DNA of 15,722 bases, from positions 1 to 15,722 of IMG/VR virus record IMGVR_UViG_2602041549_000013. One strand, given 5' to 3'. Each line of letters begins with the position of its first letter. Position 1 is the stretch's first letter. Below the pieces are notes generated by a model. It did no database searches, was not told the DNA's origin, and saw only the letters and a list, made by a program, of their open reading frames with translations. Shown here piece by piece: positions 1 to 15,722 of the stretch. Made by a program: the position numbers and the translations under genes. The DNA comes from a virus. Taxonomy: Duplodnaviria > Heunggongvirae > Uroviricota > Caudoviricetes.

Positions 1-1059
1 TTATGCTCCGGCTTCTGCGGCGGCGGCGCTGAAGTCGCCAATCTGGATGTTTTCCACCAGTGCTGCGCAGCGGTAGTCCTCAACCACATAGGCTTCGTTA
101 ACGGATTCAAAGTTTTCAATCCGGTCACGTTTCGGGTTGTCGATAACCGAACGGCGGCGGGTGTCCTCCTGCCAGTAAATGGACAGGTTATCCAGACGGG
201 TGATCAGCAGCGCATTCGGCGGGAAGAACGGCGCACGCACGGCCTGCAGACCACCCATGCGTTTCTGACTGATGATCATATCGGCAGCCAGTTTTTCACT
301 GTTTTCCTGCTCTTTGTTGACCAGCGGGAAATACTTGTCAGACAGCAGTTCACGCCCGCAAATCACCACCAGATCGTCATCGTCCTGGTAGACCACGTCG
401 ATAAGCTCATTGACCGCATCCATCACCACAGCGTCCAGGTTGGCATATTCGCCACCTTTCCCGACTTTCACCGCACCCGGTGTGGTTTCGCCGCCCGTGG
501 TGGTGCTGCCCATGACGTGATCCGGTGCATCCTCACGGATTTTCTGCAACCAGCCTTTGTTCACATCCTGCAGCAGCGGGTTTTCACTACGGTTGGAGGT
601 TTTCGCACGCTTCACGCCGTTAAAGCCGATCATGATGCGGTCCAGTGCCTGACGTTTCACGATGGCGTCACGGATACGCACCTGGAAATCCTGAAACTTC
701 GCCCACAGGTCCAGCTTCGCGTAGGTCAGCACCGTGTCAAAGTTGGTCTGCTCGCATTTATATTCCACATCGACCATCAGCGTCGGATCGACAGGTTCAC
801 GCTCTTTCGCGGTGGTGTCAGTGGTTCCGGCAATGGTGCTGCCAACACCCAGCCCCAGCAGCTGACCGGACTGCTCAGTCACTGGCGTGACGTTAATCAG
901 CGTCAGGAAAGCGGCGGACTGCTGGATCTGGTCTTCCAGCGTCTGCTGCACAGACGGCTCCACAGTGAATTTGCTGGACAGTTCTTCAACTGCCACACCG
1001 TTCAGACGCGCCAGCTGCTGCAGGTAAGCGTTAAAAGCAAAGCGGGTATTCTTCTTCAT
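1..1059 (-). CDS. N: major capsid protein (P2 gpN-like), 352 aa
   Basis: Full ORF with ATG at 1059 and stop at 1-3; size and position immediately downstream of the scaffold gene match P2 gpN; recognised from the translated sequence. Confidence 0.85.
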   Translation of the reverse strand: MKKNTRFAFNAYLQQLARLNGVAVEELSSKFTVEPSVQQTLEDQIQQSAAFLTLINVTPVTEQSGQLLGLGVGSTIAGTTDTTAKEREPVDPTLMVDVEYKCEQTNFDTVLTYAKLDLWAKFQDFQVRIRDAIVKRQALDRIMIGFNGVKRAKTSNRSENPLLQDVNKGWLQKIREDAPDHVMGSTTTGGETTPGAVKVGKGGEYANLDAVVMDAVNELIDVVYQDDDDLVVICGRELLSDKYFPLVNKEQENSEKLAADMIISQKRMGGLQAVRAPFFPPNALLITRLDNLSIYWQEDTRRRSVIDNPKRDRIENFESVNEAYVVEDYRCAALVENIQIGDFSAAAAEAGA

Positions 1060-1075
1060 CAGGTTTTGTGCTCCA

Positions 1076-1909
1076 TCAGCAATTGGTCAGAGTGTCAGCG
1101 GGGGCGTTACCGCCTGTTGCACGCTGGCGGTAGTCCTGGCGGCTGTCTTCTTGACTCAGCTTATTCACCAGTTCGTTAAAGGCGGTTTGCTGCTCCTGCA
1201 GAGCAGTCTCCAGCTCAGACAGGCGTTCTTCCTGCTCAGACAGGGATTTTTCTGTGCGTGCGCTCAGGTTCTGCTGCTCAGTGGCGACCAGCTCCACGGC
1301 CTTATGCACATCAGAGAACCGGGCGTCATCGGACTGCTCTTTTTTGGTAAACAGCGCCGTGACACGGGCAAACAGGGACGGCTTGTCCTCCTGGATTTCT
1401 TCCAGTTCGATCACCGTTTCCTCTGCAGCGGTAAAAAGATTGGCGGGATTCTGCTTGCGGTTTGCCAGTGGGTTATGGGCTGCACTGGCGCTGAATGTCA
1501 GCATTTCAGTGCCCAGACTGGCAGGGTCATCAGTGGCAGCCAGGCCGACCAGGTAGGCTTTGCCCGTATCAGCGAACTTCGGGCTGACTTCCATAGAGGT
1601 GAATAATTTCTGGCCTTTTTTCACCAGTTCCACCAGGGACTCCGTTGGCTCAACGTCGGCATACAGCGCCATCTTGCCTGCCAGCGGACCTTCCGTGATT
1701 TCTTCAGCAAACAGCGCCGTCACCTTGCCGTAGCGGTTAAAGGTGCTGTCCGGCAGATAAGACTTGATGTGCTCAAGGTTAATCAGCGCGGTATACACCG
1801 CCGGGTTGTAGCTGGCTGCCATCTGTTCCAGCCATTCACGCTGGATTTCGCGTCCGTCGGTGGTGGCACCTTCCACCCCGATGCGAAAACGCTTTGTTTT
1901 CACTGTCAT
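1076..1909 (-). CDS. O: capsid scaffolding protein (P2 gpO-like), 277 aa
   Basis: ORF divergent from the terminase gene; acidic coiled-coil-like C-terminal half (EQ-rich) typical of scaffolds; position O then N as in P2. Confidence 0.8.
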   Translation of the reverse strand: MTVKTKRFRIGVEGATTDGREIQREWLEQMAASYNPAVYTALINLEHIKSYLPDSTFNRYGKVTALFAEEITEGPLAGKMALYADVEPTESLVELVKKGQKLFTSMEVSPKFADTGKAYLVGLAATDDPASLGTEMLTFSASAAHNPLANRKQNPANLFTAAEETVIELEEIQEDKPSLFARVTALFTKKEQSDDARFSDVHKAVELVATEQQNLSARTEKSLSEQEERLSELETALQEQQTAFNELVNKLSQEDSRQDYRQRATGGNAPADTLTNC

Positions 1910-1987
1910 GAGCCGTGCTCCGTTAGAAAAAACTTACTGGAGCCTTATGGTTGCGGTGATGGGGGCAGTGAAACAATGCGCGGTATT

Positions 1988-2005
1988 TGTACCGACAACC
2001 ACACA
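1988..2005. promoter_or_regulatory. TGT-N12-ACA dyad in the divergent O/P intergenic region; candidate Ogr/Delta-type late-promoter activator site
   Basis: Sequence TGTACCGACAACCACACA seen directly; P2-family late promoters are known to carry a TGT-N12-ACA element centred near -55. Its centre is about 55 nt upstream of a plausible start for the - strand O operon. Confidence 0.3.
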
Positions 2006-2051
2006 AATCGCAGGCGGGGAAAGCCTTCATTCAAGGCTGTAGGTTTGTGCC

Positions 2052-3818
2052 ATGAACACCACACTGACACCCGCAGATCTCGATCCCCGTCGGCAGGCCA
2101 TGCTGCTGTACTTTCAGGGATACCGCGTAGCCCGCATTGCTGAAATGCTGGGCGAGAAAGTTGCAACCGTTCACAGCTGGAAAAAACGCGACAAGTGGGG
2201 TGACTATGGGCCGCTGGATCAGATGCAGCTCACCACCGCCGCACGCTACTGCCAGCTCATCATGAAGGAGCATAAAGAAGGGAAAGATTTCAAAGAGATT
2301 GACCTGCTGGCGCGCCAGTCTGAGCGCCACGCGCGGATCGGCAAGTTTAACAATGGCGGCAACGAAGCCGACTTAAACCCTAACGTCGCCAACCGCAACA
2401 AAGGCCCACGCCGTCAGCCTGAAAAGAATGTTTTCACCGATGAACAGATTGAGAAGCTGGAAGAAATTTTCCATTCCTCCATGTTCAACTACCAGCGCCA
2501 CTGGTGGGAAGCCGGAAAAACCAACCGCATCCGCAACCTGCTGAAGTCACGCCAGATCGGCGCGACCTTCTATTTTGCCCGTGAAGCCCTGATTGACGCC
2601 CTGCTTACCGGACGTAACCAGATTTTCCTTTCTGCCAGTAAGGCACAGGCCCACGTCTTCAAACAGTACATCATCGACTTTGCCAAAGAAGTGGAGGTGG
2701 AGCTGAAAGGCGATCCGATGGTGCTTCCCAACGGGGCCACACTGTATTTCCTCGGCACCAATGCCCGCACTGCCCAGAGTTATCACGGCAACCTGTATCT
2801 GGATGAATATTTCTGGATACCGAAATTCCAGGAGCTGCGCAAAGTGGCTTCCGGTATGGCTATTCACAAAAAATGGCGACAAACCTATTTTTCCACGCCA
2901 TCCAGCCTGACACACAGTGCTTATCCGTTCTGGTCCGGTGCGCTGTTCAACCGTGGGCGCAACAAAGCCGATAAGGTGGACATCGACCTGTCCCACAGCA
3001 ATCTGGCCCCCGGCCTGCTGTGCGCAGACGGGCAATACCGCCAGATAGTCACCGTGGAAGATGCAGTGCGCGGCGGATGTAGCCTTTTCGACCTCGATCA
3101 GTTGCGCATGGAGTACAGCCCGGACGAATACCAGAACCTGCTGATGTGCGAGTTTGTGGACGATCTCGCGTCCGTGTTCCCGCTCAGCGAGCTGCAGGCA
3201 TGCATGGTGGACAGTTGGGAAGTCTGGACCGACTTTCATGCTCTGGCCCTGCGCCCGTTTGGCTGGCGCGAAGTGTGGATCGGTTATGACCCGGCAAAAG
3301 GTACGCAGAACGGCGACAGCGCCGGATGCGTGGTGGTGGCACCGCCAGCCGTGCCGGGCGGTAAGTTTCGCATTCTTGAGCGTCACCAGTGGCGCGGGAT
3401 GGACTTCCGCGCCCAGGCTGACGCAATCAAAAAACTGACCGAGCAGTACAACGTGACCTACATCGGCATCGACTCAACCGGCGTTGGTCACGGGGTTTAC
3501 GAGAACGTGAAAGCGTTCTTTCCTGCCGTCCGGGAGTTTGTCTACAACCCCAACGTTAAAAACGCCCTGGTTCTCAAGGCCTACGACATTATCAGCCACC
3601 GCCGTCTGGAGTTTGACGCCGGATATACCGACATTGCGCAGTCATTTATGGCAATCCGTCGCGCCACCACCGCCAGTGGCAACCGCCCGACCTATGAAGC
3701 CAGCCGCAGCGAAGAAGCCAGCCACGCCGATCTGGCATGGGCAACGATGCACGCACTGTTTAACGAACCGCTGCAGGGCGAATCCGCCAATACCAGCAAT
3801 ATTGTGGAGATTTTTTGA
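2052..3818 (+). CDS. P: terminase large (ATPase) subunit (P2 gpP-like), 588 aa
   Basis: Long ORF divergent from O; size and N-terminal sequence consistent with P2 gpP; its stop overlaps the start of the portal gene. Confidence 0.85.
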   Translation: MNTTLTPADLDPRRQAMLLYFQGYRVARIAEMLGEKVATVHSWKKRDKWGDYGPLDQMQLTTAARYCQLIMKEHKEGKDFKEIDLLARQSERHARIGKFNNGGNEADLNPNVANRNKGPRRQPEKNVFTDEQIEKLEEIFHSSMFNYQRHWWEAGKTNRIRNLLKSRQIGATFYFAREALIDALLTGRNQIFLSASKAQAHVFKQYIIDFAKEVEVELKGDPMVLPNGATLYFLGTNARTAQSYHGNLYLDEYFWIPKFQELRKVASGMAIHKKWRQTYFSTPSSLTHSAYPFWSGALFNRGRNKADKVDIDLSHSNLAPGLLCADGQYRQIVTVEDAVRGGCSLFDLDQLRMEYSPDEYQNLLMCEFVDDLASVFPLSELQACMVDSWEVWTDFHALALRPFGWREVWIGYDPAKGTQNGDSAGCVVVAPPAVPGGKFRILERHQWRGMDFRAQADAIKKLTEQYNVTYIGIDSTGVGHGVYENVKAFFPAVREFVYNPNVKNALVLKAYDIISHRRLEFDAGYTDIAQSFMAIRRATTASGNRPTYEASRSEEASHADLAWATMHALFNEPLQGESANTSNIVEIF

Positions 3819-4855
3819 TGGGAAAGAGTAAGAAGAACCGAGCTGCGGCGACGAAACAGATCCAGCTTAAAAGTCAAACTACAGCCGAAGCATTCAGCTT
3901 CGGCGATCCCGTTCCTGTTCTGGACCGCCGTGAACTGCTGGACTATGTGGAATGCGTACAGATGGACCGTTGGTATGAGCCGCCCGTCAGCTTTGACGGA
4001 CTGGCGCGCACCTTCCGCGCCGCCGTGCATCACAGTTCCCCGATTGCAGTAAAGTGCAACATTCTGACCAGTACCTATATCCCTCATCCGCTGCTCAGCC
4101 AGCAGGCTTTTTCGCGTTTTGTGCAGGACTATCTGGTATTTGGTAACGCCTACCTGGAGAAACGCACGAACCGATTCGGTGAAGTTATCGCCCTTGAGCC
4201 TGCCCTGGCAAAATACACCCGACGTGGATTAGACCTGGATACCTACTGGTTTGTGCAATACGGCATGACAACGCAACCGTATCAGTTCACGAAAGGCAGC
4301 ATTTTTCACCTGATGGAACCGGATATCAACCAGGAGATCTACGGCCTGCCCGGTTATCTTTCTGCCATTCCGTCAGCCCTGCTCAACGAGTCCGCCACGC
4401 TGTTCCGTCGAAAGTATTACATTAACGGCAGTCATGCAGGCTTCATCATGTACATGACCGACGCCGCGCAGAACCAGGAGGATGTAAACAACCTCCGTAA
4501 CGCGATGAAAAGCGCCAAAGGACCAGGTAACTTCCGCAATCTGTTTATGTACTCGCCTAACGGCAAAAAGGACGGACTTCAGATCATCCCATTGTCAGAA
4601 GTCGCGGCGAAGGATGAGTTTCTGAATATCAAAAATGTCAGCCGCGATGACATGATGGCAGCGCACCGTGTGCCACCGCAAATGATGGGGATTATGCCGA
4701 ATAATATTGGGGGGTTTGGGGATGTGGAGAAGGCAAGCCGTGTATTCGTCCGAAATGAGCTAATGCCACTACAAAAGCGATTACAGGAGATGAATGATTG
4801 GCTTGGCAAGGAGGCGATACGGTTTGATACCTACTCGCTAGATATAGCCCCATAA
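3818..4855 (+). CDS. Q: portal (capsid completion) protein (P2 gpQ-like), 345 aa from ATG 3818
   Basis: ATG at 3818 overlaps the P stop TGA (ATGA coupling); the ORF track starts 3 nt earlier at a TTG. Size and position match P2 gpQ. Confidence 0.85.
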   Translation: MGKSKKNRAAATKQIQLKSQTTAEAFSFGDPVPVLDRRELLDYVECVQMDRWYEPPVSFDGLARTFRAAVHHSSPIAVKCNILTSTYIPHPLLSQQAFSRFVQDYLVFGNAYLEKRTNRFGEVIALEPALAKYTRRGLDLDTYWFVQYGMTTQPYQFTKGSIFHLMEPDINQEIYGLPGYLSAIPSALLNESATLFRRKYYINGSHAGFIMYMTDAAQNQEDVNNLRNAMKSAKGPGNFRNLFMYSPNGKKDGLQIIPLSEVAAKDEFLNIKNVSRDDMMAAHRVPPQMMGIMPNNIGGFGDVEKASRVFVRNELMPLQKRLQEMNDWLGKEAIRFDTYSLDIAP

Positions 4856-4857
4856 TA

Positions 4858-4884
4858 AGAAAAGCCACCGTTTGGTGGCTTTTC
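4858..4884. terminator. bidirectional intrinsic terminator between convergent Q and the kinase operon
   Basis: GCCACC-GTTT-GGTGGC hairpin flanked by an A-run upstream and TTTTCTTC downstream, lying between the Q stop (4855) and the - strand stop at 4890. Confidence 0.6.
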
Positions 4885-4889
4885 TTCAT

Positions 4890-5630
4890 TTACTCAATAG
4901 GTTCAAACTCATCTTGAGGAATCAGCGTCGATTGACAGGCTTGGCTTAGTACCCCTGATAATTTACATAATAACCGATAGTTATGAGGAGCATCATCGCT
5001 AATCTTTTCGACCGTTAAAGTGATTGATTTTGGATCATCCAATAACATCTTCTTGATGTCATTACTTAAATACCTAGGGCAGTAACCAACGATTTCAGCT
5101 GGTTTATCTGCACGAACGACAACAGCATCCCCATCGTATTCATTTTGAAGATCCAAGCAAAGACGCAAAATTTGCCCCGGTTTCAATTCAGATACACGAG
5201 CATTAGCTAAGCTATTCAAGTAACCAAGTCCATGTAAGAAGAAAAAATGCTCAAAGTTACCATCAGAATCAAAATCAATTTTTTTGAAAATCTGCAGCTG
5301 ATCAGTGCTTCGTAAGCCTCCCGAGCGAGCAAGAATATCGATAGGATTTACCTTATCTTCTTCAAATCCAAGCCATTTAATGAAACTCGGATACTCTGGA
5401 CGTCTCGGTGATAAAAGGCGATTTTTAAAAAGAGGAAACAATTCTTCCGATACATAAGTTTCACGAACATCACTCATGCCGCTAAACTTTGTAAATTTAG
5501 AAGATTTAAGAGCACCTTTGGTATACCTGAAAACATACCCCGATTTGCGCTCTTGCAAGTTACCAACAACATGCCAGTCTCTGGTATCTGGTGCCTGCCA
5601 TGCGACGTAAACGGAGTTTGTATTAGTCAT
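4890..5630 (-). CDS. kinase partner protein, 246 aa: N-terminal HipA-N/HipS-like region (approx. aa 1-110) fused to a HIRAN-like domain (approx. aa 125-215)
   Basis: Start ATG overlaps the kinase stop (ATGA at 5627-5630). N-terminal VVGNL...YVFRY...LFPLFKNRLLSPRRPE resembles the HipA N-subdomain-1 / HipS pattern; C-terminal LGYL...LKPGQILRLCLDLQNEYDGDAVVV...VGYCPRYLS resembles the HIRAN pattern. Domain calls are from motif memory, not a search. Confidence 0.5.
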   Translation of the reverse strand: MTNTNSVYVAWQAPDTRDWHVVGNLQERKSGYVFRYTKGALKSSKFTKFSGMSDVRETYVSEELFPLFKNRLLSPRRPEYPSFIKWLGFEEDKVNPIDILARSGGLRSTDQLQIFKKIDFDSDGNFEHFFFLHGLGYLNSLANARVSELKPGQILRLCLDLQNEYDGDAVVVRADKPAEIVGYCPRYLSNDIKKMLLDDPKSITLTVEKISDDAPHNYRLLCKLSGVLSQACQSTLIPQDEFEPIE

Positions 5631-6541
5631 TCTAGTAACCTTCTGCGATTTTCCATTACCATTAACGTTGCAAATCTACGTGCACTGTCGGATATACACG
5701 ATGAAGGCACTTGGTTAAACACATCTGTAATGGAATCTTCTGTTAAAACGCTCAACTTACCTAACCAATGGTCGCGAGCGGCAACTCTCCCTTCAACTGC
5801 ATGTTGAAATGCTTCAACAGTCAGCAAGGGCTTTTTATCAGTTTTTGCTTTGAATAGCTCAGAGCGAGCTTTTCTTACAAAACATGGGATTTGTCGATTT
5901 TTATCTTTAGTATTAAGCCGTTCGCTACGCTCATCATCTAACATCTCCCTTCCTAAACTAGCGGCATGATCGTATGTTGGACACAAAAACTGCTCACCAG
6001 TTTCATTGTTAAGCATGATTGCCCAATTTTCATGGTGGCGATCTTGATTACTCACAAGTGCATCGAGCATCAAATATCCACAAAATACATCTGCTGCATT
6101 TAGCCCGGTTAGATCATATACACTCGGAGGAGGCTTGATAGATTCCCTATCTAAACAACCCAAGACCCTTGTGACAGTGTGTTCTCTGACCCTTACCGGC
6201 TTTTCCCCGGCTTGTAAAGGCCCAGGATAATCGAATGTCGAACTGTGAAGCACTTCATTTCCCATTACCATCCGGAAACCAGATGGAATGATATTCTGAG
6301 TCACCACACCGAATCGACCATTGTATCGCGCCAAATCATAGCTAGCATGTGGAATGTTAAGCAAATGACATAACTCAGCAGCACACTTTTCAGACCAATG
6401 CTCGCCAGTACCTGGCCTAGAGTACTTAAACAACTGCAAATTTACAGTGTCATCGGAGAAATAGAACCAAAACTTCTCTTTGGTTCCTAACTGTTCAAGA
6501 TCGTTAGCTACGGGGCTAAGCTCTACCAATTGGTATGGCAT
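5627..6541 (-). CDS. short HipA-family (HipT-like) Ser/Thr protein kinase, 304 aa
   Basis: Gly-rich loop GTKEK near the N-terminus (aa 19-23); catalytic motif D167-R-H-H-E-N172 and downstream LCPTYD191 match the HipA catalytic and Mg-binding aspartate motifs. Region is visibly AT-richer than the phage backbone. Confidence 0.75.
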   Translation of the reverse strand: MPYQLVELSPVANDLEQLGTKEKFWFYFSDDTVNLQLFKYSRPGTGEHWSEKCAAELCHLLNIPHASYDLARYNGRFGVVTQNIIPSGFRMVMGNEVLHSSTFDYPGPLQAGEKPVRVREHTVTRVLGCLDRESIKPPPSVYDLTGLNAADVFCGYLMLDALVSNQDRHHENWAIMLNNETGEQFLCPTYDHAASLGREMLDDERSERLNTKDKNRQIPCFVRKARSELFKAKTDKKPLLTVEAFQHAVEGRVAARDHWLGKLSVLTEDSITDVFNQVPSSCISDSARRFATLMVMENRRRLLE

Positions 6542-6693
6542 CTGACATCCCTGTTTAGCGGATTATGAATAAGTTAGGTTCCATTTTATCCAAACATTGT
6601 CAAATACCCTAAGATTTATTAGATGATAGAGCGATACTGTATGCATGTCCAGCAATCAAATCAATATATAACTCTTATATGGCTTAACGCGCG

Positions 6694-6712
6694 CTCGTAT
6701 CCCCGCCACGCC
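6694..6712. other. candidate cohesive-end (cos) site
   Basis: Reverse complement GGCGTGGCGGGGATACGAG shares its first 13 nt with the 186-type cohesive end as I recall it (GGCGTGGCGGGGAAAGCAT); orientation and position beyond Q are as expected. Recalled sequence, not verified. Confidence 0.35.
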
Positions 6713-6761
6713 TGCCCGCTTTATGTAGTGGTTTTCATGCAGGTGCATGATCTACGCAAAA

Positions 6762-6781
6762 GCCCGCCAGTTCTGGCGGGC
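6762..6781 (-). terminator. perfect 9-bp stem hairpin next to the cos candidate; possible - strand terminator or part of the cos/terminase region
   Basis: GCCCGCCAG-TT-CTGGCGGGC; on the - strand it is followed by TTTTGCG. Confidence 0.35.
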
Positions 6782-7054
6782 CTTAGCAAAAACGATCCTC
6801 AAACGATCATGCAATCTCATGCAGCATAGACATGCACAGACGAGTAAAGCGAATCGGACTTTACGCAAGGTGAACTCCTCAGCGGGTATAATCAGTATGT
6901 CGGAAAATCTCTAAAAATAAATAATTCGGTTAACAGGTATGCTTACAAAAGCATATATTTGATTAAAAATCATGTAAGGGGGAGGATCTCAAACTGAATC
7001 GCCACGGGTTTTGCAAATTTCGATAGTCTCTCTAACGTTTCGGCTGAGGTCAAA

Positions 7055-7480
7055 ATGAAAAGCTTTTACGTATTAATTTTAATTCTGGTTGCAAGCTTTG
7101 TTAGCGTCCCAGTTCAGGCGGTAACAGCTAAAAACTATGAGAAAGGAACTAAAGCTCAACAGAAATCAATAGCTTACCTTTCATGTGCATTCTATGGCAG
7201 TAGCACACAATTAGATCCTAGCTACACGGGGCAAGTACCTACAGCCGATATCAAGATATTACAGAAAGCAGCTTACCACGCTTACAACGATGCGCTCTCA
7301 TACTTAGGCTATGAGGAACCAGATCACGAACAACGCATAATTGATTATGCTGAATTTGTGGCGTCGCAAGAAGCTGTGTTATGGGATAAGCCGGGAATGA
7401 ATGGAAAGCAGGTAACACTAATTGCTCGTTCTCTCTACAATGAGAGTAACTGTAACTTGTTACTGGACTCAATTAAGTAG
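7055..7480 (+). CDS. secreted protein of unknown function, 141 aa, with a cleavable signal peptide
   Basis: RBS GAGGT upstream of the ATG; N-terminal MKSFYVLILILVASFVSVPVQA with AxA-type cleavage site; two Cys in the mature part; AT-rich gene and upstream region. Confidence 0.55.
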   Translation: MKSFYVLILILVASFVSVPVQAVTAKNYEKGTKAQQKSIAYLSCAFYGSSTQLDPSYTGQVPTADIKILQKAAYHAYNDALSYLGYEEPDHEQRIIDYAEFVASQEAVLWDKPGMNGKQVTLIARSLYNESNCNLLLDSIK

Positions 7481-7639
7481 GAAAAAGATGGTATTTTGCC
7501 CGTAGTTTCAACCTTAATCTCCGAACCTGTCGCAGAACGGGCGTTCACTCATCAAATAAACGCCACACCTAACGCCTCACTGTACTCGTTGTTCAACCTT
7601 GCTGACGCCAGAACCAAGTTCAGACGCCAGCAACTTTTC

Positions 7640-7873
7640 TTAATGCAGCCAGCTGTCGTCTTCCCACACCTTCTGCATAATTTTCATCACTTGTTTTCTT
7701 TCTTCGTCCAGTTGCAGTCCGGTCAGTTCCACACCGTTAGAGCTACCTTTGCGGATGCGAATTACCGTTTTGGGATACAGGGGGCGCAGATTGCGGTAAA
7801 GCTCTGATTCAAGGGCGTCCAGGGTAGACTGGTTAATCTTCTGCTCTTTATCGATCATTATTTCAATGCGCAT
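7640..7873 (-). CDS. DinI-family protein, 77 aa from ATG 7873
   Basis: MRIEIMIDK...LDALESEL...YP...WEDDSW aligns with the E. coli DinI pattern; GAGGTG RBS 6 nt upstream of the ATG; the longer ORF-track start at 7945 is not used. Confidence 0.8.
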   Translation of the reverse strand: MRIEIMIDKEQKINQSTLDALESELYRNLRPLYPKTVIRIRKGSSNGVELTGLQLDEERKQVMKIMQKVWEDDSWLH

Positions 7874-7883
7874 AAAAGTCACC

Positions 7884-8072
7884 TCAACTGATGACATCCA
7901 TTGAGCGGTTGTATTCGTGAGTTCTGATTTTTGCCATGAGTTCATCAGTCAACTCAGAAACCCACTGCAGAGCCAGCCCCTTCTCTTCATCACTACACTC
8001 ACTAGCCGCTACAAGCTTAAGAAAAAAATCAATGCGCTGGAGCTTCAAAGACTCCAAAAAATAGTCCTGCAT
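7884..8072 (-). CDS. small SOS-regulated protein, 62 aa; possible Tum-like antirepressor
   Basis: First gene downstream of the LexA box; AGGAGG RBS before ATG 8072; forms an operon with the DinI-like gene. The 97-aa version from 8177 would contain the LexA box and is rejected. Function is inferred by position only, by analogy with the 186 tum operon as I recall it. Confidence 0.45.
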   Translation of the reverse strand: MQDYFLESLKLQRIDFFLKLVAASECSDEEKGLALQWVSELTDELMAKIRTHEYNRSMDVIS

Positions 8073-8113
8073 CTTTCCTCCTATGACACCACACGCAACA
8101 CTGTATGTATAAC

Positions 8114-8133
8114 CACTGTTTATATTTACAGTA
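8114..8133 (-). promoter_or_regulatory. LexA (SOS) box in the promoter of the small-ORF/DinI operon
   Basis: CACTGTTTATATTTACAGTA has a perfect CTGT-N8-ACAG core and matches 17 of 20 positions of the consensus TACTGTATATATATACAGTA; an extra CTGT half-site at 8101-8104; a TTTACA -35-like hexamer lies at 8151-8156 on the - strand. Confidence 0.7.
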
Positions 8134-8225
8134 TATAATAATCTTACTGATGTAAAACGTTTTTTTACATTCATCACCCTGATATACCTGGTATTATTAA
8201 GAGCACGAATTGTTAACCCGCGTAA

Positions 8226-10640
8226 TTAATACAGGTTCCGCCACTGATCATCTTCCTGCAAACGCTGGTTCCGATAGAAGATACGCAGGCCTGCTCCTGA
8301 CGGAATACTGCCTCCGCGAAGGAGTAAATCGACCTCTTTCTCGCTGCCATCAAATCCTCTGGACTTCAGCTCATACACGAGCTGCAGTCGCTGATGGTCT
8401 GTAATTCGCTGTTTGTAGTCTTTACGCCGTTTCGGTTTCACCAGGCGTAACCTTGCAGCCAGTTCCCGGCGCTCTTTTTTGCTCATACTGTGCAGGTAAT
8501 CGTGCAACTCCTTGTCATCCATGCGGGTAATGTCCGTTCTGGTATCCCCATCAGCTGATTTGTCTTTCCCTTGTTGGTTCAAATTTTCAGCAAGGGGACA
8601 GTTATTGCCACGAGTCCAAGGGGCGCAAGCGCCCTGGTCGGCTGCCGCCTCCTGAACGTCAACGGCCTTACGAACCATTTTCCACTTCACTGCATGAGTG
8701 CAGATCTTGCCCTCTGCAATGGGTGACCAGATGCCATAAATACGAATACCGTGATCGCCATAGGCGGTTGGCTCTTCGTTGATTTCATAAGCGGTTCTGA
8801 TGAGGTGATATTTGCGGGAAACCAGTACGCCGCCCTGCTTCATGATGTAGGTGGCAAAACAACCAGCATCAGCAGCAGCCAGGATGGCATCAAGGCGCGG
8901 GTTATCCAGTACCGGCGCACCTGCTTTTTTGTCACCCTGTTGCCTTGCCGCCTGACCAGCCAGCAATCGCAGTTCACGGTAAGCCTGACGCCCCGGAATG
9001 CCAAAGAAGCGGAATTGCTGAACACGATGCAGAGACGCCCAGGCATTAACGTATTCAGCGTTATCACGCAGGGATTTACCCGTTTCCTTACTGATCTCGC
9101 CAGCCAGACCACACCCGTCAATATTCTTACTGATATATTTCGCAATGTAGCTTGTCGGCGTTCCTTTGCGCGGGTTTATCAGCTCAGACTTAAAGCGTGG
9201 CCCCGTGTTATTGCCCAGCTCCTCGCGGTCTTCACGGATGGCAAACTTACGCAACAATGCAGTAATGGCGCGGCGGTCTTTTTTACGCATGAAACACAAC
9301 AGGTGCCAGTGAACTGTGCCGTCATGATGCGGCTCAGCCACCCGCACGCCATACCAGCGCAACCCGGCTTTGTGCATAGCCTTACGAAATGCAGCAAACA
9401 TGCCGACCAGATAATCGCTGCTTTGTCTTACTGTCGCGTTGGTCCAGGTCGGGTTTGGCCTGCCGTTATTTAGCGTGGAATGGAAACGTGACGGACAGGT
9501 GATGGTGTAGAAAACGGCGCAGTCACCACGCATTTCCGCGATAAGCTCCAGGCCTTTAACACAGGCCATCATCTCATTGCGGCGATGCGCCGGGTTGCTG
9601 CTGCTGGCGTTTACCACATCCTCCATGTTCAGCGTGTCGCCGTCTTCGTTCACCAGTTCATGAGAACGGAAAAACTCCAGCGACTTACGGCGCTGCTCAC
9701 GTTTATGCATCACGGCTTCATAGCTGACATAGGGAGATGCTTTTTTGCTGACCAGGCAGACAGCACGCAACTGCTCTTCCCGCCATTCGCAACGCATCTT
9801 CCATAATTTCCGATACCACCAGTCGGCGCACAGCATACGCGCCAGCGAACCCGGAATGAGTTCATAGGGCACAGGTTTGCGGCGGTTTCTTTTCCGGCGG
9901 AGTTGCTCAAACGCAGGCGGTATGACATCCAGTCGCAGGGTTTCTGCAGCCACCTTTTCCCATGTCTTGCGGATTTCTTCTGGCTTAACATCATCGGAGG
10001 CGTACAAATCACCACAAGCGGCATCAAGACACATGCTCATATGCGCAGCGACAAGGGTAGACAGGCGTTTCACCTGATCCTGACTCATTTCAGGCAGGAT
10101 CAGCAGACCGTCCAGCCCTTCATGGCTTGCCATAAAACGAAAAGATGCAGATAGCTGGCTGTCGCGTACATGCTCCAGTCGTTCCAGACATGGCTTAATC
10201 GTCTCACGCAAATAGCGGGAATAAGCCTTTGGCCTGCCCAGGCTGCTGAAATATTCAATACGTTGCATCAGCGGCTTGCTGATATGGGAAGGCTGGGCGT
10301 TGACGTCGGCCAGAATGACCATGTCCGGATTAAAACGCTGCTGCTCATGCGCCATCTTTGCCCGGCTAATGAGCTTATCCTGCTCCATTTCGCGTTGGAC
10401 AGGATCACGGGATTCATTAAAGAAATAACGCTCCCAGACCTGATCACTCAGTGCCTCGCGGCGCAACTGTTCCTGCTCGTTATCGGCAGCGTACAGAGTG
10501 ATCAGGTTTGAAAGCGTAGAAACCGGCGCAACTTCCGCCGGGTCCAGATAAGGGTTAATGGCCTTTTTCGGGCTGTTCCATGAGAATGCTGCGGCAGCCT
10601 CGTTAAAGCCGCAGCAGTTGTTCATATCGGCATGACTCAT
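8226..10640 (-). CDS. A: rolling-circle replication initiator / endonuclease (P2 gpA-like), 804 aa
   Basis: HUH-type motif VHWHLL and active-site tyrosine motif YIAKYISK typical of gpA-type Rep proteins; start ATG overlaps the dam stop (ATGA). Confidence 0.85.
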
Positions 10641-11494
10641 GCACGTACTCCGTACACGGCAGAACTATCCACGCCACGCGAATAATCAAATCCCATCCAG
10701 CAGCGCGGCCCGGAAACAGCAATGATTTCTGTTGCTGATTTACCCTCGCCAGCTGCCACACCGATGCTGCGTTTTACCTTGATATAGTGGTGAGTAAAAT
10801 TGCGATACAGCGAACGGATCAGGGATGTGTCACTGTTAGAAACAATGACTGGATGTCCTTCTGATGACCGATGTTCAAGAACGGATGCCAGGTGATACTG
10901 GTCATCTTCAGTGAAACCATCAGTGTGATAGCCGGAAAACGTACCGTCATACGGCGGATCGCAATACACCACATCTCCCGCCTTCAACATCGCCAGCGTT
11001 TCATCAAAGCTGGCGCAGATAAACGTTGCTCGCTGGGCTTTTTCTGCAAATGTGCGAAGTTCTTTTTCAGGGAAATACGGATTTTTATAATTACCGTAGG
11101 GGATGTTGAAATGCCCGCTCTTGTTATAGCGACATAAACCACGGTAACCGTGACGATTAAGATACAGGAAATATACCGCTTTCATGAAATCAGTAATTTC
11201 AGTTGAGCAGTTAAACTCCTGCCTTATGTTGTAATAAGCCACCTCCCTGTTTGCGATCTCAAATAAAACTCTGGCGCGAGATATAAACGATTCACAATCA
11301 GCGGCAACCTTTTTATAGAGGTTGATTAAATCAGGATTAATATCCGCAACCAGATAGCTGGGATAATCCGTTTCCATCATCACAGCACAGGAACCCGCGA
11401 AAGGTTCAACCAGTCGCGGGCCAGCAGGAAGGTATTTTTTCAGTTCTGGCATAATGGCGGTTTTATTTCCCGCCCATTTCAGGATGGTGCTCAT
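10637..11494 (-). CDS. dam: DNA adenine methyltransferase (Dam family, orphan), 285 aa from ATG 11494
   Basis: N-terminal KWAGNK and FAGSCAV motifs and catalytic DPPY motif; ATG 11494 overlaps the upstream zinc-finger gene stop (ATGA) and follows a GGAGGTG RBS; the ORF-track start at 11554 is not used. Confidence 0.8.
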
Positions 11495-11718
11495 ACAGCA
11501 CCTCCGTTGTAATGTTTGCCTTTCAGTTCTGCGATTTCCTGACAGGTAATGCAAAGCTGCACTCCCGGAATGGCGCGGCGTCGTGCTGGCGGAATTGGCG
11601 CTTCACATTCAATGCAAAGTACGCGTGACACGCCCGGTGATTTGGCACGGGCTGCACGGATATGGCGCTGGCGTTCTTCTTCAACGCGCTGCTGTACGAG
11701 ATCCATTGCATCAGCCAT
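11491..11718 (-). CDS. TraR/DksA-family C4 zinc-finger protein, 75 aa
   Basis: Two CxxC pairs (CIECEAPIP ... CITCQ) in a small basic protein; common position in P2-like early operons. Confidence 0.7.
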   Translation of the reverse strand: MADAMDLVQQRVEEERQRHIRAARAKSPGVSRVLCIECEAPIPPARRRAIPGVQLCITCQEIAELKGKHYNGGAV

Positions 11719-11951
11719 TAGTGGATCTCCTGCGCTTCGTTCTGGATTGCTTCAGCAGTCACGCGCAGCAGTTCTGCCGCTTCCACGTGGTTTAGCTGGC
11801 GGGATGAGATATGACACGCCAGGCTATCAAGGCGAGCAGCCATTGCTTCAGCCCTTGCCCGGCGTTCTTCCAGACGAGCCTCTGTCAGTAAAATATTAAG
11901 CCCTGCGTCATCCGGTCCGGTTTTAGTCGTGAGGGTTTCAATATTACGCAT
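11718..11951 (-). CDS. hypothetical early-operon protein, 77 aa from ATG 11951
   Basis: ORF with AGGAGA RBS 7 nt upstream of ATG 11951; stop overlaps the next start by 1 nt. Confidence 0.45.
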   Translation of the reverse strand: MRNIETLTTKTGPDDAGLNILLTEARLEERRARAEAMAARLDSLACHISSRQLNHVEAAELLRVTAEAIQNEAQEIH

Positions 11952-12018
11952 AATCAATTCTCCTGAATTTAGATAAAGGGATGCCCGGCGGGTTTACGCC
12001 ATTAATTTCATTAGTTGG

Positions 12019-12360
12019 TTAATTCGGCATGGTTAGCCGTCTGGGAAATAAGCTCACCACTGCACGAAAATGATTCATTGCTTTAATCAGCTCCCGCTTT
12101 TCGTCAGTGGTCAGCTCATTAATGCTGATGCTATGACGTTCAGCTGGAATTTTTGCCATAAAGAATATGGCAGCCAGTGCCCGTTTATTTTGTTCATTAT
12201 TGATATCCCGTGGATCACGCATATCTTTAATAAACCGCTCAAGCTCTGACTCAATATTCAGGCCAAAAACTTTCGCCCTTAACTCTGCAATGTGATTAAG
12301 TCCATTCAGGCGTTCACCGGGGCTTAATGGAACAGTTGCTGCAGCGCCATTAATTGCCAT
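12019..12360 (-). CDS. hypothetical early-operon protein, 113 aa
   Basis: ORF in the operon with a purine-rich RBS; no recognisable motif. Confidence 0.45.
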   Translation of the reverse strand: MAINGAAATVPLSPGERLNGLNHIAELRAKVFGLNIESELERFIKDMRDPRDINNEQNKRALAAIFFMAKIPAERHSISINELTTDEKRELIKAMNHFRAVVSLFPRRLTMPN

Positions 12361-12382
12361 ACTTCATATCCCCCAAACGCAG

Positions 12383-12607
12383 CTATCGTTCTTTGTTCTT
12401 ACGGTAACGCTCAAGAGGAGATACATTTTTTCGTATCGTCTCTTTAACCTGCTCTCCCCGTAAAAACGTCCCATCCTTTAACGTGAAAAAGTAACTGCCA
12501 TCGCCCGACAATGACGGATAGCAACAGAGCAAATCATCTTCAGGTACTGAATAACTCTCCCCTCTGTAACGAAACTGATAAACCACTTCACTTTCTGCCG
12601 CATACAT
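12383..12607 (-). CDS. hypothetical early-operon protein, 74 aa
   Basis: GGAG RBS about 9 nt upstream of ATG 12607; aromatic-rich, protein-like composition; overlaps the upstream ORF out of frame. Confidence 0.4.
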   Translation of the reverse strand: MYAAESEVVYQFRYRGESYSVPEDDLLCCYPSLSGDGSYFFTLKDGTFLRGEQVKETIRKNVSPLERYRKNKER

Positions 12608-12774
12608 TTGGACTTTCTCCGTTTCCTCGTGGTCAATTCAGACAGCAATTCATCTTGTGAATGACATGGATGCCAGCGTTTTCCATCCTCACCCGTGATC
12701 CAGCCGTGACCGTAGTGCATTGTCGGGCTTTGTTTTACCAGCAGCGATGCAAATGATGGTTCTTTCGTCAGCAT
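12478..12774 (-). CDS. hypothetical early-operon protein, 98 aa from ATG 12774; 3' portion may be an out-of-frame read-through
   Basis: GAGGTG RBS overlapping the cII stop, ATG at 12774; the last ~45 codons overlap the next gene in another frame and are Lys/Arg-rich. Confidence 0.35.
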   Translation of the reverse strand: MLTKEPSFASLLVKQSPTMHYGHGWITGEDGKRWHPCHSQDELLSELTTRKRRKSKCMRQKVKWFISFVTEGRVIQYLKMICSVAIRHCRAMAVTFSR

Positions 12775-12781
12775 AAGCACC

Positions 12782-13291
12782 TCACAGCAAACCGAATGAA
12801 GCACCGAGGCCAGTCACGGTATCAACTGCACTCGCCATCGCAGGATTAGCCTGTAAACGGGCCTGCAATGAAACAGCAGCCAGCGCCATCAGTCGTGTTA
12901 CAGAGTTAATGCTGCTGATAGCATCACGACGACCGGCACTAGTTTTTACATCACCAGATACCGCACCTGCTGCAACACGCCCGATCTCTGCAGTTGCGCT
13001 CATGACGTAATGCGGCAGTTTCTCTTTTGCTACCTCATTAATCGGTACACATGGCAGACAATGAATCTGTGCCAGAAAACCATCTACCAACGTTGAATCT
13101 TCAGTCAGATCGGTAAGCAGCCAGATTTCTGGTGCGGTTAATAAATGAGGTTGAGCTGGGTTCAGCTTGTTCCGCAGAATCTGCACATTCATGCCCGCAC
13201 GTTCTGCCAGTTGCACCAGATTGTGGCGCAGTGCGAATGCACGACAGGCTTCATCAAAATGTGGATGTTTGGAAACTTGGTAATCAAACAT
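12782..13291 (-). CDS. cII: CII-like transcriptional activator (186 type), 169 aa from ATG 13291
   Basis: N-terminal helix-turn-helix ([30 protein letters not shown]); second gene of the lytic operon after apl; length matches 186 CII as I recall it; GGAG RBS before ATG 13291. Confidence 0.65.
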
Positions 13292-13355
13292 GGTTTTCAA
13301 CTCCGAACTTATCGCAAAATCGAACTCAGCGTCTTATTGCGAAAATAGACGTCTA

Positions 13356-13559
13356 TTAAGCAGACAAAGCATCAACAGTCAGAGCAGCCAGGTTAATCAT
13401 TACCTTTTCACGTTTTTTGTCTTTACGAAGACGATGACGAGGTAGTCGGCCATCAGCCAACATGTCGTTAATCGTATCAATAGAAAGGCCAGTCAGTTCG
13501 CTATAACGTTCGATTGTGACATGTGGTGTATTCAGAGTAATTGAAATGTTAGGTGTCAT
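13356..13559 (-). CDS. apl: Apl/Cox-like excisionase / transcriptional regulator, 67 aa
   Basis: First gene of the - strand lytic operon, divergent from cI; small HTH protein with basic C-terminal tail; AAGGA RBS. Confidence 0.6.
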
Positions 13560-13704
13560 AAGGCAACATTCCTTCTAGATATGGCTTGTGGCGAGCCGTT
13601 GTTTGTCGTGATTAGTAGTGAAGGCTCCAAAAGAACACTTCTGGTTCAACTTTAAGATCGCTTTTGGAATCTGTCAACGAATTTTGGATTTCTTTGGAGG
13701 ACTT
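13560..13704. promoter_or_regulatory. lysis-lysogeny switch region between apl and cI (candidate face-to-face pR/pL promoters and operators)
   Basis: Intergenic region between divergent apl and cI; - strand TTGACA (13673-13678) with TAAAGT 18 bp downstream is a candidate lytic promoter; direct TTTTGGA repeats at 13662-13668 and 13683-13689. Confidence 0.35.
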
Positions 13705-14274
13705 GTGGATTTCAATAGCGGCGGTAAGAAAGCCATAGAACGTTTAGTTGAAGCATATGGGTTCGGTACCCGTCAGGCTCTATGTGATCATTTAGGTGTT
13801 TCTAAGAGCACCATGGCAACGCGCTATATGCGTGATATTTTTCCAGCAGATTGGGTAATCCAGTGCGCCCTTGAAACGGGCACCTCGCTTAATTGGCTAA
13901 CAACAGGGCATGGTTCAAAGCAAGCATCAGCAAATACAAATACTATAGAAGTAGAAAAATATTTATTGTCTGATGGAGCATTGCAGAAAGACGGTTTTTA
14001 TATTTTTGATAAGGGATTTCTACCCTCTACGTTTAAAAAACCTTTTGTCATCACAGATAACAATTCTGAATTTATTTGTGATAAAGAATTTGATGATATA
14101 CGTGATGGTAAATGGGTAATAAGTATTGATGGCGAAATAACGATCCGTGACATTACTCGTTTACCCGGTGGAAGAATCTTCGTCGAGGGTGGAAACAGAG
14201 CCTTCGAATGCAAGATAGAAGACATTGAAATAATTGGTAAAATTATAAGTTTAACAGTCAAGTATGTTAAATAG
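13705..14274 (+). CDS. cI: immunity repressor CI (186 type), about 189 aa
   Basis: HTH RQALCDHLGVSKSTMATRY followed by ETGTSLNWLTTGHG, typical of XRE-type phage repressors; divergent from apl/cII and upstream of int. Start is ambiguous: GTG 13705 after GGAGG is preferred over GTG 13618 or TTG 13684. C-terminal half is AT-rich. Confidence 0.7.
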   Translation: MDFNSGGKKAIERLVEAYGFGTRQALCDHLGVSKSTMATRYMRDIFPADWVIQCALETGTSLNWLTTGHGSKQASANTNTIEVEKYLLSDGALQKDGFYIFDKGFLPSTFKKPFVITDNNSEFICDKEFDDIRDGKWVISIDGEITIRDITRLPGGRIFVEGGNRAFECKIEDIEIIGKIISLTVKYVK

Positions 14275-14289
14275 TACCGGGAGGAAACT

Positions 14290-14481
14290 ATGCTTGGTAA
14301 GGTATTTTTTGTGGTTTTGTCATGTTCTTTGTTATTAAACCCACTAACTACCTATGCTAGAAATTATCCCTGCTCAGGGAAAAAGGGAGGTGTTTCTCAC
14401 TGTACCTCAGATGGCAAATTCGTTTGCAATGATGGAACTATTAGTAAATCCAAAAAAATCTGTACTAAAAACTCACGATAA
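14290..14481 (+). CDS. small Cys-rich secreted peptide or lipoprotein, 63 aa, unknown function
   Basis: Strong RBS GGGAGGA; hydrophobic N-terminus with either a signal-peptidase I site (TYA) or a lipobox-like VLSC; four Cys in a roughly 40-aa mature part; AT-rich. Confidence 0.4.
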
Positions 14482-14669
14482 CTTTTGCTTTTATATCTGC
14501 GTCTAAAATAAAAATGAGCCGCAGGTTAACCGCAAAAGTTACATGCTCACATAGCAAAAAGAATAGCCAACTTAATTATGGCTTCAGTGAGATGTATGGT
14601 CGTAGGATTTCATACATTGACACTGGTTATACATACAGTGAAAATGCTCTCTACTGGAGGGCATTTTTT

Positions 14670-15722
14670 ATGGCAGTACGAAAACTCACCACTGGGAAAT
14701 GGCTTTGCGAATGTTACCCCGCCGGACGAAGTGGGCGTCGTGTGCGTAAACAATTCGTCACCAAAGGCGAAGCACTGGCTTTTGAGCGCCACACGATGGA
14801 AGAAACCGAAGCAAAGCCCTGGCTGGGTGAATCAGTGGATCGTCGAACACTGAAAGACGTGGTTGAGCTATGGTTCAAACTACATGGTAAATCTCTGACA
14901 GCTGGGCAGCATGTCTATGACAAATTGCTGTTGATGGTTGACGCTCTGGGCAATCCTCTTGCAACCGATCTCACCTCTAAAATGTTTGCCCACTATCGAG
15001 ATAAACGCCTGACAGGCGAGATCTACTTCAGCGAGAAATGGAAGAAAGGAGCAAGCCCGGTCACCATTAACCTGGAGCAAAGCTATCTAAGTAGTGTTTT
15101 TAGCGAACTATCCCGTCTGGGCGAATGGTCGTATCCGAACCCACTGGAGAACATGCGAAAATTCACCATCGCAGAAAAAGAGATGGCATGGCTTACCCAT
15201 GAGCAGATTGTTGAATTGCTGGCTGATTGCAAACGTCAGGACCCAATTCTGGCACTGGTAGTTAAGATATGCTTAAGCACAGGCGCACGCTGGCGTGAAG
15301 CCGTAAATCTTACCCGCTCACAGGTGACCAAATACCGAATTACCTTTGTCAGAACGAAGGGGAAGAAAAACAGAAGCATCCCTATCAGTAAAGAGCTTTA
15401 CGAAGAGATCATGGCGCTTGATGGGTTCAATTTCTTCACAGACTGCTATTTTCAATTTTTATCCGTGATGGAAAAAACGTCTATCGTGCTCCCTCGCGGT
15501 CAACTCACACACGTTCTGCGCCATACGTTTGCGGCGCACTTCATGATGTCGGGTGGAAACATTCTGGCCTTACAAAAAATTCTCGGACACCACGATATAA
15601 AAATGACTATGCGTTACGCACATCTGGCACCGGATCATCTGGAAACGGCGCTCCGTTTCAATCCTCTGGCAACGCTGCCAAGTGGCGACAAAGTGGCGGC
15701 AGCGGTTGGCATTACCCCGTAA
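14670..15722 (+). CDS. int: tyrosine integrase (P2/186 type), 350 aa from ATG 14670
   Basis: N-terminal MAVRKLTTGKW...GRSGRRVRKQF typical of P2-family integrases; C-terminal R...HxxR...Y catalytic pattern (LRHTFAAH ... MRYAHL); GGAGGG RBS 8 nt upstream of ATG 14670; the ORF-track extension from 14514 is rejected. Confidence 0.85.
   Translation: MAVRKLTTGKWLCECYPAGRSGRRVRKQFVTKGEALAFERHTMEETEAKPWLGESVDRRTLKDVVELWFKLHGKSLTAGQHVYDKLLLMVDALGNPLATDLTSKMFAHYRDKRLTGEIYFSEKWKKGASPVTINLEQSYLSSVFSELSRLGEWSYPNPLENMRKFTIAEKEMAWLTHEQIVELLADCKRQDPILALVVKICLSTGARWREAVNLTRSQVTKYRITFVRTKGKKNRSIPISKELYEEIMALDGFNFFTDCYFQFLSVMEKTSIVLPRGQLTHVLRHTFAAHFMMSGGNILALQKILGHHDIKMTMRYAHLAPDHLETALRFNPLATLPSGDKVAAAVGITP

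Follow-up and report, generated by a model that had tools for sequence, protein, structure and literature searches.

What does a small gene that lies beside the cohesive-end site (cos) of a P2-like prophage, pointing away from that site and into the face of the early operon, do for the lysogen that carries it? The gene in question is an open reading frame (ORF) on the + strand of a 15,722-nt stretch of viral DNA (IMG/VR record IMGVR_UViG_2602041549_000013, positions 1 to 15,722; hereafter the window), a P2-like Escherichia coli prophage in which positions 6850-7560 are 99.6% identical to strain ESBL 15. It begins with ATG at 7055, runs for 141 codons to a TAG ending at 7480, and corresponds to WP_021561694.1, a "hypothetical protein" in the NCBI annotation. 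Nothing reported here overturns expectations, and the gene is uncharacterised prophage hotspot cargo, a lysogenic-conversion moron. We tentatively suggest that its most likely role is superinfection exclusion at the level of the cell envelope, in which the product would serve the lysogen as a stand-alone periplasmic binding or inhibitor protein.

The boundaries of the moron are seen by comparison with P2-like prophages that lack it. The empty-site allele of strain MINF_1D (locus L002) joins position 6837 directly to 7569, which delimits the insert to 6838-7568. Of 5,426 complete E. coli genomes, 329 have the empty junction and 102 have the ORF. All E. coli loci with the ORF are 97-99% identical over 6688-8400; beyond cos there are eight different portal-to-cos distances in 12 loci, and in a further 15 loci the portal gene is beyond the stretch that was fetched. 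The candidate defence pair of the window, PDC-M03, which lies between the portal gene and cos, accompanies the ORF in only 11 of the 102 carriers (11 of all 5,426 genomes), and Klebsiella P2-like prophages have the same module beside AIPR, nSTAND1 or STAS-like cargo. Because the cargo across cos varies while the ORF stays on the cos/DinI side, the ORF is inherited independently of the neighbouring defence cassette. The initial annotation had called the gene a moron, and it is strongly supported as such by its sharp-edged, low-GC insert relative to the empty site, its orientation against the early operon, its constant association with cos and DinI, and the occurrence of homologues at moron positions in unrelated prophages and phage-plasmids. 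Other prophages fill the same slot differently: a 111-aa DUF8087 protein, acidic and cytoplasmic, in BL21 and K207-3 of the B-strain lineage (L016 2905-3240), a DUF6694 lipoprotein with a 99-aa lipoprotein in strain TB4328 (L017 3048-4262), and a 203-aa membrane protein with an 86-aa protein in LF82 (L018 2686-3606). These alternative cargoes are uncharacterised, and several are envelope proteins.

Comparison of 56 related loci together with all of the complete E. coli genomes shows two separate variable slots, split by the conserved block at 6688-6837. The P2 cos junction, reverse-complemented, aligns with 6700-6741 (34 of 42 nt, 81% identity), and TCCCCGCCACGCC in the window is the counterpart of the P2 cohesive-end sequence TCCCCGCCTCGCC. 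Since the cos site is within the conserved block, the P2-like "hotspot", as read from these alignments, is a pair of slots, one on each side of cos, which puts one at the left end of the virion chromosome and the other at the right, with the gene order Q - slot 1 - cos - ORF - DinI - gpA. The initial annotation had placed the gene in the cargo region; the cos block parts it from the cargo next to it, PDC-M03 (4890-6541), and the gene has a slot to itself. Rousset et al. 2022 (PMC9122126) regard the whole interval from gpA to gpQ as a hotspot of anti-phage genes, with validated systems in it, and WP_021561694 is listed in Table S5A of that paper as "hypothetical". At the right end of P2 the order is A - orf91 - tin - old - cosR, and the old-tin mRNA begins about 150 bp from cos and heads to orf91. 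With old-tin located between orf91 and cosR and transcribed towards orf91, the ORF in the window occupies the old-tin position and has the old-tin orientation. A hairpin in the conserved block, which was read by eye and received no call in a terminator scan, looks like the terminator of the early (gpA-DinI) operon; the slot 2 cargo lies upstream of it, and lytic early transcription would consequently run antisense through the ORF.

The gene itself is a real one. Orthologues from E. coli, Klebsiella, Hafnia and lambdoid prophages have pairwise ratios of nonsynonymous to synonymous substitution rates (dN/dS) of 0.13-0.27, with dS up to 0.72, and the reading frame is unbroken in every copy; the E. 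coli copies are 95-100% identical to each other. On these substitution patterns the ORF is a genuine gene under purifying selection, and because the low dN/dS range takes in comparisons of two copies that both lack the partner gene described below, the secreted gene is functional on its own. The GC content is 40.8% in the ORF and 39.2% in the 217 bp 5' of it, compared with 55.0% in the structural genes and 51.0% in the early genes from DinI to gpA.

The predicted product has an N-terminal signal peptide, MKSFYVLILILVASFVSVPVQA, followed by VTAKNY. Lys2 is its single basic residue, the hydrophobic core is about 16 residues long (mean Kyte-Doolittle value of 3.0 over residues 6-17), and the predicted cleavage site has Pro at -4 and V-Q-A at -3 to -1. 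No lipobox was found in this signal peptide, which was judged by rule from the -3/-1 residues and the hydrophobic core. Signal peptides of this layout are present in all 22 aligned family members, one of which (P0005) is a lipoprotein variant with an L-S-A-C lipobox. By its sequence the product carries every hallmark of Sec export. The mature part contains exactly two cysteines, C44, found in 22 of 22 aligned sequences, and C133, found in 21, the exception being P0005, which terminates before that position; a C44-C133 disulfide, made by DsbA, is probably present. An AlphaFold2 model of the mature domain, built from the 22-sequence alignment, has a mean predicted local distance difference test score (pLDDT) of 95.5 and a predicted template-modelling score (pTM) of 0.87, with helices at mature residues 3-31, 41-61, 69-88, 98-108 and 111-118; inclusion of the signal peptide gives a mediocre model (pLDDT 72). 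Three stretches carry most of the conservation, namely Y41-G48, helix 3 and its following loop (I95-N116, consensus IIDYAEyVAsQEAVLWDKPGMN), and the place where helices 4 and 5 meet, and the residues that are invariant or nearly so are C44, W110, Y41, A99, A107, Y128, N132 and C133. Residues 95-116 are the most conserved stretch of the mature domain, and we infer that helix 3 and the following loop form a face that would bind another protein. The initial annotation had described a + strand gene for a 141-aa protein with its own ribosome-binding site (RBS), a classical signal peptide and two Cys. The gene and its RBS are borne out by the ATG-to-TAG ORF and the GAGG at 7046-7049, and both cysteines prove to be conserved over the family; secretion agrees with sequence features kept family-wide and is a rule-based prediction.

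Part of the sequence between the left edge of the insert and the ORF is the remains of another gene. In a Hafnia alvei P2-like prophage (L011) the homologue lies between tail genes S and V, with a gene for a 215-aa protein 20 bp 5' of it, and in a Klebsiella aerogenes prophage (L003) the homologue is between the integrase and terminase genes, with a gene for a 219-aa protein 75 bp 5' of it. These two upstream proteins are homologous (29% identity, E 3e-18), each has two N-terminal transmembrane helices with a basic loop between them, and the positive-inside rule predicts a periplasmic location for the C-terminal domain, which is about 165 aa long. No intact partner gene was found upstream of the ORF in the window, which has instead a relic of about 110 bp with stops. 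The lesions are a TAC to TAA change and a 6-bp insertion: the Hafnia partner ends with ...DGKHTFDYKSGKWEDLKPWEFYRFRDAL-stop, the E. coli relic translates as ...QKHIFD-stop-KSCKGEDLKLNRHGFCKFR-stop, and the relics of Klebsiella and of locus L052 translate as ...QKHMFD-stop-K-stop-GKWEDLKLNRHGFYRFRKSL-stop. As the E. coli, Klebsiella and L052 copies share the breakpoint and the stop, the alignments point to one ancestral truncation behind all three. Judged from these sequences, the insert represents the second half of what was formerly a cassette of two genes, in which a membrane protein with two transmembrane helices was followed by the secreted protein. The AT-rich upstream region of the initial annotation is present, as the 217 bp of 39.2% GC show, and part of it (6945-7054) is the decayed 3' end of a lost gene.

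Lambdoid prophages share with the window only the ORF and 31 bp upstream that include the RBS (7024-7478, 84% identity). A third partner homologue (P0029, in L021) is 40% identical over its full length and is followed by an unrelated 163-aa protein, so the pairing is not obligate. The partner family comprises three clusters, with none in the phage and plasmid collections; a tblastn search of phage records with the partner found no match, and there is no Pfam, NCBIfam, PHROG or PDB match above threshold, the Pfam hits of the two-helix protein being weak and below the cut-off. Directly downstream of the Hafnia pair is a gene matching the PADLOC candidate PDC-S11 (L011 8624-9640, E 8e-110), and the S-V moron slot therefore also mixes candidate defence genes with a secreted-protein cassette.

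The family of the secreted protein has about 25 clusters, and all members whose source is named are from Enterobacterales (Escherichia, Klebsiella, Hafnia, Enterobacter, Salmonella and Citrobacter). A HMMER search of 1.84 billion representative proteins gave 18 hits at E <=0.001, three of which are long repetitive proteins that match just in short repeats, leaving about 15 likely true members; word-indexed searches of 5.8 billion proteins gave 6 and 14 clusters. Full-length members are 125-145 aa with a signal peptide, apart from one 168-aa call with an N-terminal extension. The sole family to which the window protein belongs is phrog_7437, matched end to end (E 3e-97) and matched by the K. 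aerogenes homologue too, which says nothing about function as phrog_7437 has no functional annotation. Sequence searches of Pfam, NCBIfam, PADLOC and PDB gave no match for the window protein, and none of 22 family members hits Pfam. The initial annotation did not recognise the family, and these searches leave that assessment standing. In the literature found, neither the accession nor the PHROG is mentioned in the text of any paper.

In every context examined the family is on a mobile element, whether prophage, phage-plasmid or plasmid, and in most cases the orientation of the gene is independent of that of the genes beside it. Members are found at two different moron slots of P2-like prophages, at the far end of lambdoid prophages past the tail spike gene, at the edge of a Citrobacter prophage, immediately after an integrase gene at the mqo-ecotin locus, in SSU5-like IncFIB phage-plasmids of about 105-116 kb where the gene opposes its neighbours, and on a Salmonella plasmid beside insertion sequence (IS) elements and a mer operon. 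Three members are in tight operons. That of K. aerogenes (L003 7267-9635; also L004 180-2332) has five genes with 4-bp overlaps between the integrase and HNH/terminase genes, encoding the two-helix membrane protein, the family member and three further signal-peptide proteins; none of the five L003 proteins reaches a curated Pfam cut-off, and in Logan contig L004 the middle genes are swapped. In L060 the order is a secreted 154-aa protein, the family member and a secreted 165-aa protein, and in Salmonella locus L057 it is a lipoprotein, a secreted 112-aa protein and the family member. The 157-aa neighbour in L003 and the 165-aa neighbour in L060 are homologous (32% identity, E 2e-22), and hhalign shows no relation of these neighbours to the family itself, with only a C-terminal "LY..NC.LL" aligning at 6-9% probability. 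The family member in L060 (2852-6917; chromosome CP188041, mqo-ecotin locus) is surrounded by an array of five or more small proteins that are secreted or located in the membrane, and the stretch that was fetched contains no integrase gene. The mqo-ecotin-AI-2E transporter locus looks like a recurrent integration site, because integrase-bearing elements with family members are there in L003 and L059. In the SSU5-like phage-plasmids (L019 3146-3844, L020 1650-2339) a "lysozyme inhibitor LprI family" protein, a further accessory product directed to the periplasm, is encoded about 3 kb from the family member.

The initial annotation suggested lysogenic conversion or superinfection exclusion in the periplasm, which is plausible for such a gene and to which the old-tin position lends circumstantial support. 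Our preference for envelope-level exclusion, itself a tentative one, comes from four observations: the hotspot and old-tin position, the orientation opposing the early operon, the envelope proteins among the alternative cargoes of the slot, and the separate occurrence of both halves of the ancestral cassette, which is more like T4 Imm and Sp than an obligate toxin-immunity pair. Most family members are solo, without the partner, and candidate defence genes are nearby in several cases (PDC-M03 in the window, AIPR and nSTAND1 in Klebsiella, PDC-S11 in Hafnia). A plausible scenario is that the secreted protein is made in the lysogen from its own promoter as a precursor that would be exported by Sec and locked by the C44-C133 disulfide. 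It could then act in the periplasm as a non-enzymatic binder or inhibitor through helix 3 and the following loop (residues 95-116), on a periplasm-exposed component of the penetration or DNA-delivery machinery of an incoming phage or, alternatively, on a host envelope protein that this machinery needs. It would work alone, in the way that T4 has one exclusion protein in the periplasm (Sp) and a separate one in the membrane (Imm).

Several points weigh against this interpretation. Sequence searches reveal no homology that joins the family to any exclusion protein, and tblastn against 50,697 phage records gave no match at all. A hotspot location implicates a gene by association, and of the hotspot systems that Rousset et al. 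cloned only about one-third were active (PMC9122126). Expression of the ORF in lysogens is assumed from its sequence: promoter-like hits in the region are no more frequent than in shuffled sequence, and a terminator scan found none downstream of the ORF. Finally, adjacency to the membrane partner has been kept across 29-35% identity, which suggests an original joint function for the pair that may be unrelated to phage exclusion. A bolder version of the exclusion proposal, possible and on balance doubtful, is that the protein is the founding member of an undescribed family of periplasmic exclusion proteins or inhibitors, whose helical fold has no particular counterpart among the structures solved so far. 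It would derive from a two-component envelope module, be now autonomous, and be spreading among P2-like, lambdoid and SSU5-like elements of the Enterobacterales as a cassette of one ORF and its RBS, its target being a new vulnerable step of phage entry or a competitor's toxin.

The main rival, which we regard as unlikely, is that the protein is an orphan immunity protein that neutralises an antibacterial toxin acting in the periplasm and so protects the host in bacterial competition and not against phages; the toxins envisaged are peptidoglycan amidases or muramidases of type VI secretion systems (T6SS), bacteriocins of the colicin or pesticin type, and lysozyme. The loss of an upstream gene with retention of the small downstream one is the classic pattern for orphan immunity, the tandem arrays of differing small secreted proteins on mobile elements resemble arrays of immunity genes, and the family is also on plasmids. 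However, the absence of Pfam hits for any member extends to the immunity families, no T6SS, Rhs, contact-dependent inhibition (CDI) or bacteriocin gene adjoins the family member in any of about 15 examined contexts, and the upstream partner is a membrane-anchored protein with two transmembrane helices and no secreted toxin. Moreover, the 40%-identical partner that lacks the family downstream would be lethal were the partner an obligate toxin.

It is quite unlikely that the gene is an envelope fitness or virulence factor, such as a periplasmic chaperone, stress protein or envelope modulator like HdeA or Spy, that helps the lysogen in its gut habitat and acts on neither phages nor toxins. HdeA-like chaperones, too, are small, helical and periplasmic and have a disulfide, as is predicted for the window protein, most carriers are human or animal gut or clinical Enterobacterales, and the lambdoid copies at the prophage end past the tail spike gene are at the site of conversion genes of the bor/lom type. 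Nonetheless there is no match to HdeA, Spy/CpxP or any other Pfam family, a pattern scan placed the family neither in core genomes nor in 185,579 species-representative genomes, and the P2-like hotspot is not known for virulence cargo (as stated in PMC13586616).

The conserved pairing in Hafnia and K. aerogenes raises a further explanation, an improbable one, in which the secreted protein regulates the membrane partner by binding its periplasmic domain, in the manner of T4 antiholin RI on holin T or of a restrained abortive-infection effector; the E. coli copy would then be either a remnant or an anti-defence protein that inhibits such partners carried on other elements. The partner has remained adjacent over considerable divergence (29% identity in the partner and 32-35% in the family between the two species, with gaps of 20-75 bp), its C-terminal ~165 aa are periplasmic by the positive-inside rule, and the sizes of the two proteins resemble those of T4 T (~218 aa) and RI. 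However, most members lack the partner and solo copies are under purifying selection, and with three partner clusters and none in the phage and plasmid collections a free inhibitor would seldom meet its target; in addition, neither protein matches a Pfam holin or antiholin family, and the prophages concerned have separate lysis cassettes. Least probable by far is a non-functional hitch-hiker, retained only because it is linked to cos and DinI in a prophage lineage that has spread recently, for although the E. coli copies are nearly identical and the module contains pseudogene debris, the dN/dS range across E. coli, Klebsiella, Hafnia and lambdoid copies, the intact frame of all copies, the family-wide motif and the confident fold disfavour it.

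Coordinates of the features of the insert and of its prophage setting in the window.
Feature	Position	Strand	Remarks
ORF for 141-aa precursor	7055..7480 (including stop)	+	WP_021561694-like, phrog_7437; dN/dS 0.13-0.27
Whole insert, slot 2 cargo	6838..7568	+	731 bp, 40.9% GC; missing from empty-site P2-like prophages
Predicted Sec-type signal peptide, codons 1-22	7055..7120	+	Signal peptidase I cleavage predicted after VQA; rule-based
Mature 119-aa domain, predicted five-helix bundle	7121..7477	+	AlphaFold2 model; family alignment (W110 invariant)
Shine-Dalgarno sequence GAGG	7046..7049	+	5 nt 5' of ATG; kept in Hafnia, Klebsiella and lambdoid copies
Decayed relic of the last ~26-28 codons of the partner gene	6945..7054	+	In-frame stops (TAC to TAA), 6-bp indel; tblastn, DNA alignment to Hafnia L011
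Candidate sigma-70 promoter TTAACA-18-TATATT	6930..6959	+	10/12 consensus matches; scan hits no commoner than in shuffled sequence
Lone TATAAT, alternative promoter candidate	6887-6892	+	Read from sequence
Conserved cos block, left boundary	6688..6837	.	cos-like ~6693-6741, hairpin 6762-6781; kept in all loci
Hairpin GCCCGCC-AGAACT-GGCGGGC	6762-6781	read on -	Then TTTTGCG; read by eye; conserved in all P2-like loci
DinI-like gene, right neighbour	7640..7873	-	Convergent with ORF; last but one in early (gpA) operon
62-aa gene	between DinI-like gene and gpA	-	
Replication gene gpA	8226-10640	-	
Dam gene	beyond gpA		
Integrase gene	from 14514		
HIRAN protein and HipA-like kinase	4890-6541	-	Match PADLOC candidate PDC-M03
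Portal gene Q	3815-4855	+	
Terminase gene P	2052-3818	+	
Scaffold gene O	between N and P	-	
Major capsid gene N	1-1059	-	

Among the other features of the window, we note that the PDC-M03 match consists of a 304-aa HipA-like kinase (5627-6541, - strand) overlapping a 246-aa HIRAN protein (4890-5630, - strand), with a Couple_hipA-like N-terminus (PADLOC PDC-M03A/B, E 3e-122 and 7e-93); a supplement of PMC9122126 gives this "HIRAN-kinase" architecture for Vibrio crassostreae as well. At 4802-4904 on the + strand there is a sub-threshold Rfam match (E 3.5e-6) to the Brucella small RNA BSnc120, scoring 36 bits where the gathering score is 114; it overlaps the portal gene at its 3' end, the location of the tQ terminator in P2, and is probably just the hairpin of a terminator. 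At 13618-14514 a 63-aa ORF lies between the CI repressor gene and the integrase gene, immediately before the latter, and the corresponding interval in ESBL 15 (L001 16685-18414) holds an AAA ATPase gene and two hypothetical genes; by this comparison the stretch from CI to int is a further site of variable cargo, with almost nothing in it in the window.

Most characterised systems of the P2 and P4 hotspots are cytoplasmic, being nucleases, NTPases, retrons and toxin-antitoxin-like kinases, and here the old-tin position is filled by a selectively maintained, single-domain protein that is predicted to be exported. The relic records the cutting-down of a two-gene cassette to a one-gene moron. The ORF is a clean and cheap experimental target, with an easily cloned 731-bp native module, a confident model, and natural controls in the 329 empty-site E. 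coli genomes and in the paired and orphan versions of the gene. Should the protein block entry, a periplasmic mechanism would join the known means of exclusion, and a novel target in host or phage might come to light; should it be an immunity protein, the cargo of P2-like hotspots would include protection from rival bacteria as well.

The closest known counterpart by location is old-tin of P2, with which the ORF shares position (orf91/DinI to cos) and orientation (away from cos and convergent with the early operon). Both the P2 old-tin region (the "TO region") and the insert are AT-rich, dispensable and variable among P2-like phages. However, Old and Tin have no sequence relation to the window protein (tblastn against all phage records), and Old is a cytoplasmic ATPase-nuclease and Tin hits T-even replication in the cytoplasm, whereas the window protein is predicted to be exported. 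By protein type the likeness is to T4 Spackle (Sp), which is small, helical and periplasmic with a signal peptide, as the window protein is by prediction. T4 encodes a separate small membrane exclusion protein, Imm, beside Sp, and the two echo the ancestral cassette of a membrane protein and a secreted protein; Sp is made by a virulent phage early in infection, whereas the window gene is a prophage gene, tblastn found no sequence match to any phage record, T4 included, and neither sequence nor fold homology to Sp was found. The T6SS amidase immunity proteins Tai4 and Rap are likewise periplasmic, all-helical and of about 100-120 aa, akin to the predicted window protein, and orphan copies are known for families of this type; none of 22 members has a Pfam hit or matches the Tai4/Rap profile, and no T6SS or effector gene is in the examined contexts. 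For a pair like holin T and antiholin RI, the partner has no above-threshold match in Pfam, NCBIfam, PHROG or PDB and neither protein has a phage tblastn hit. The envelope morons, namely lambda Bor and Lom, the Cor and Llp lipoproteins and P22 SieA, are prophage-expressed and independently transcribed, and alter the surface or block entry. They are lipoproteins, outer-membrane barrels or inner-membrane proteins of unrelated sequence, whereas the window protein is predicted to be a soluble periplasmic helical bundle, with a lipoprotein form in one homologue only. Homologues of the window gene occupy the same sort of prophage-end positions as these envelope morons.

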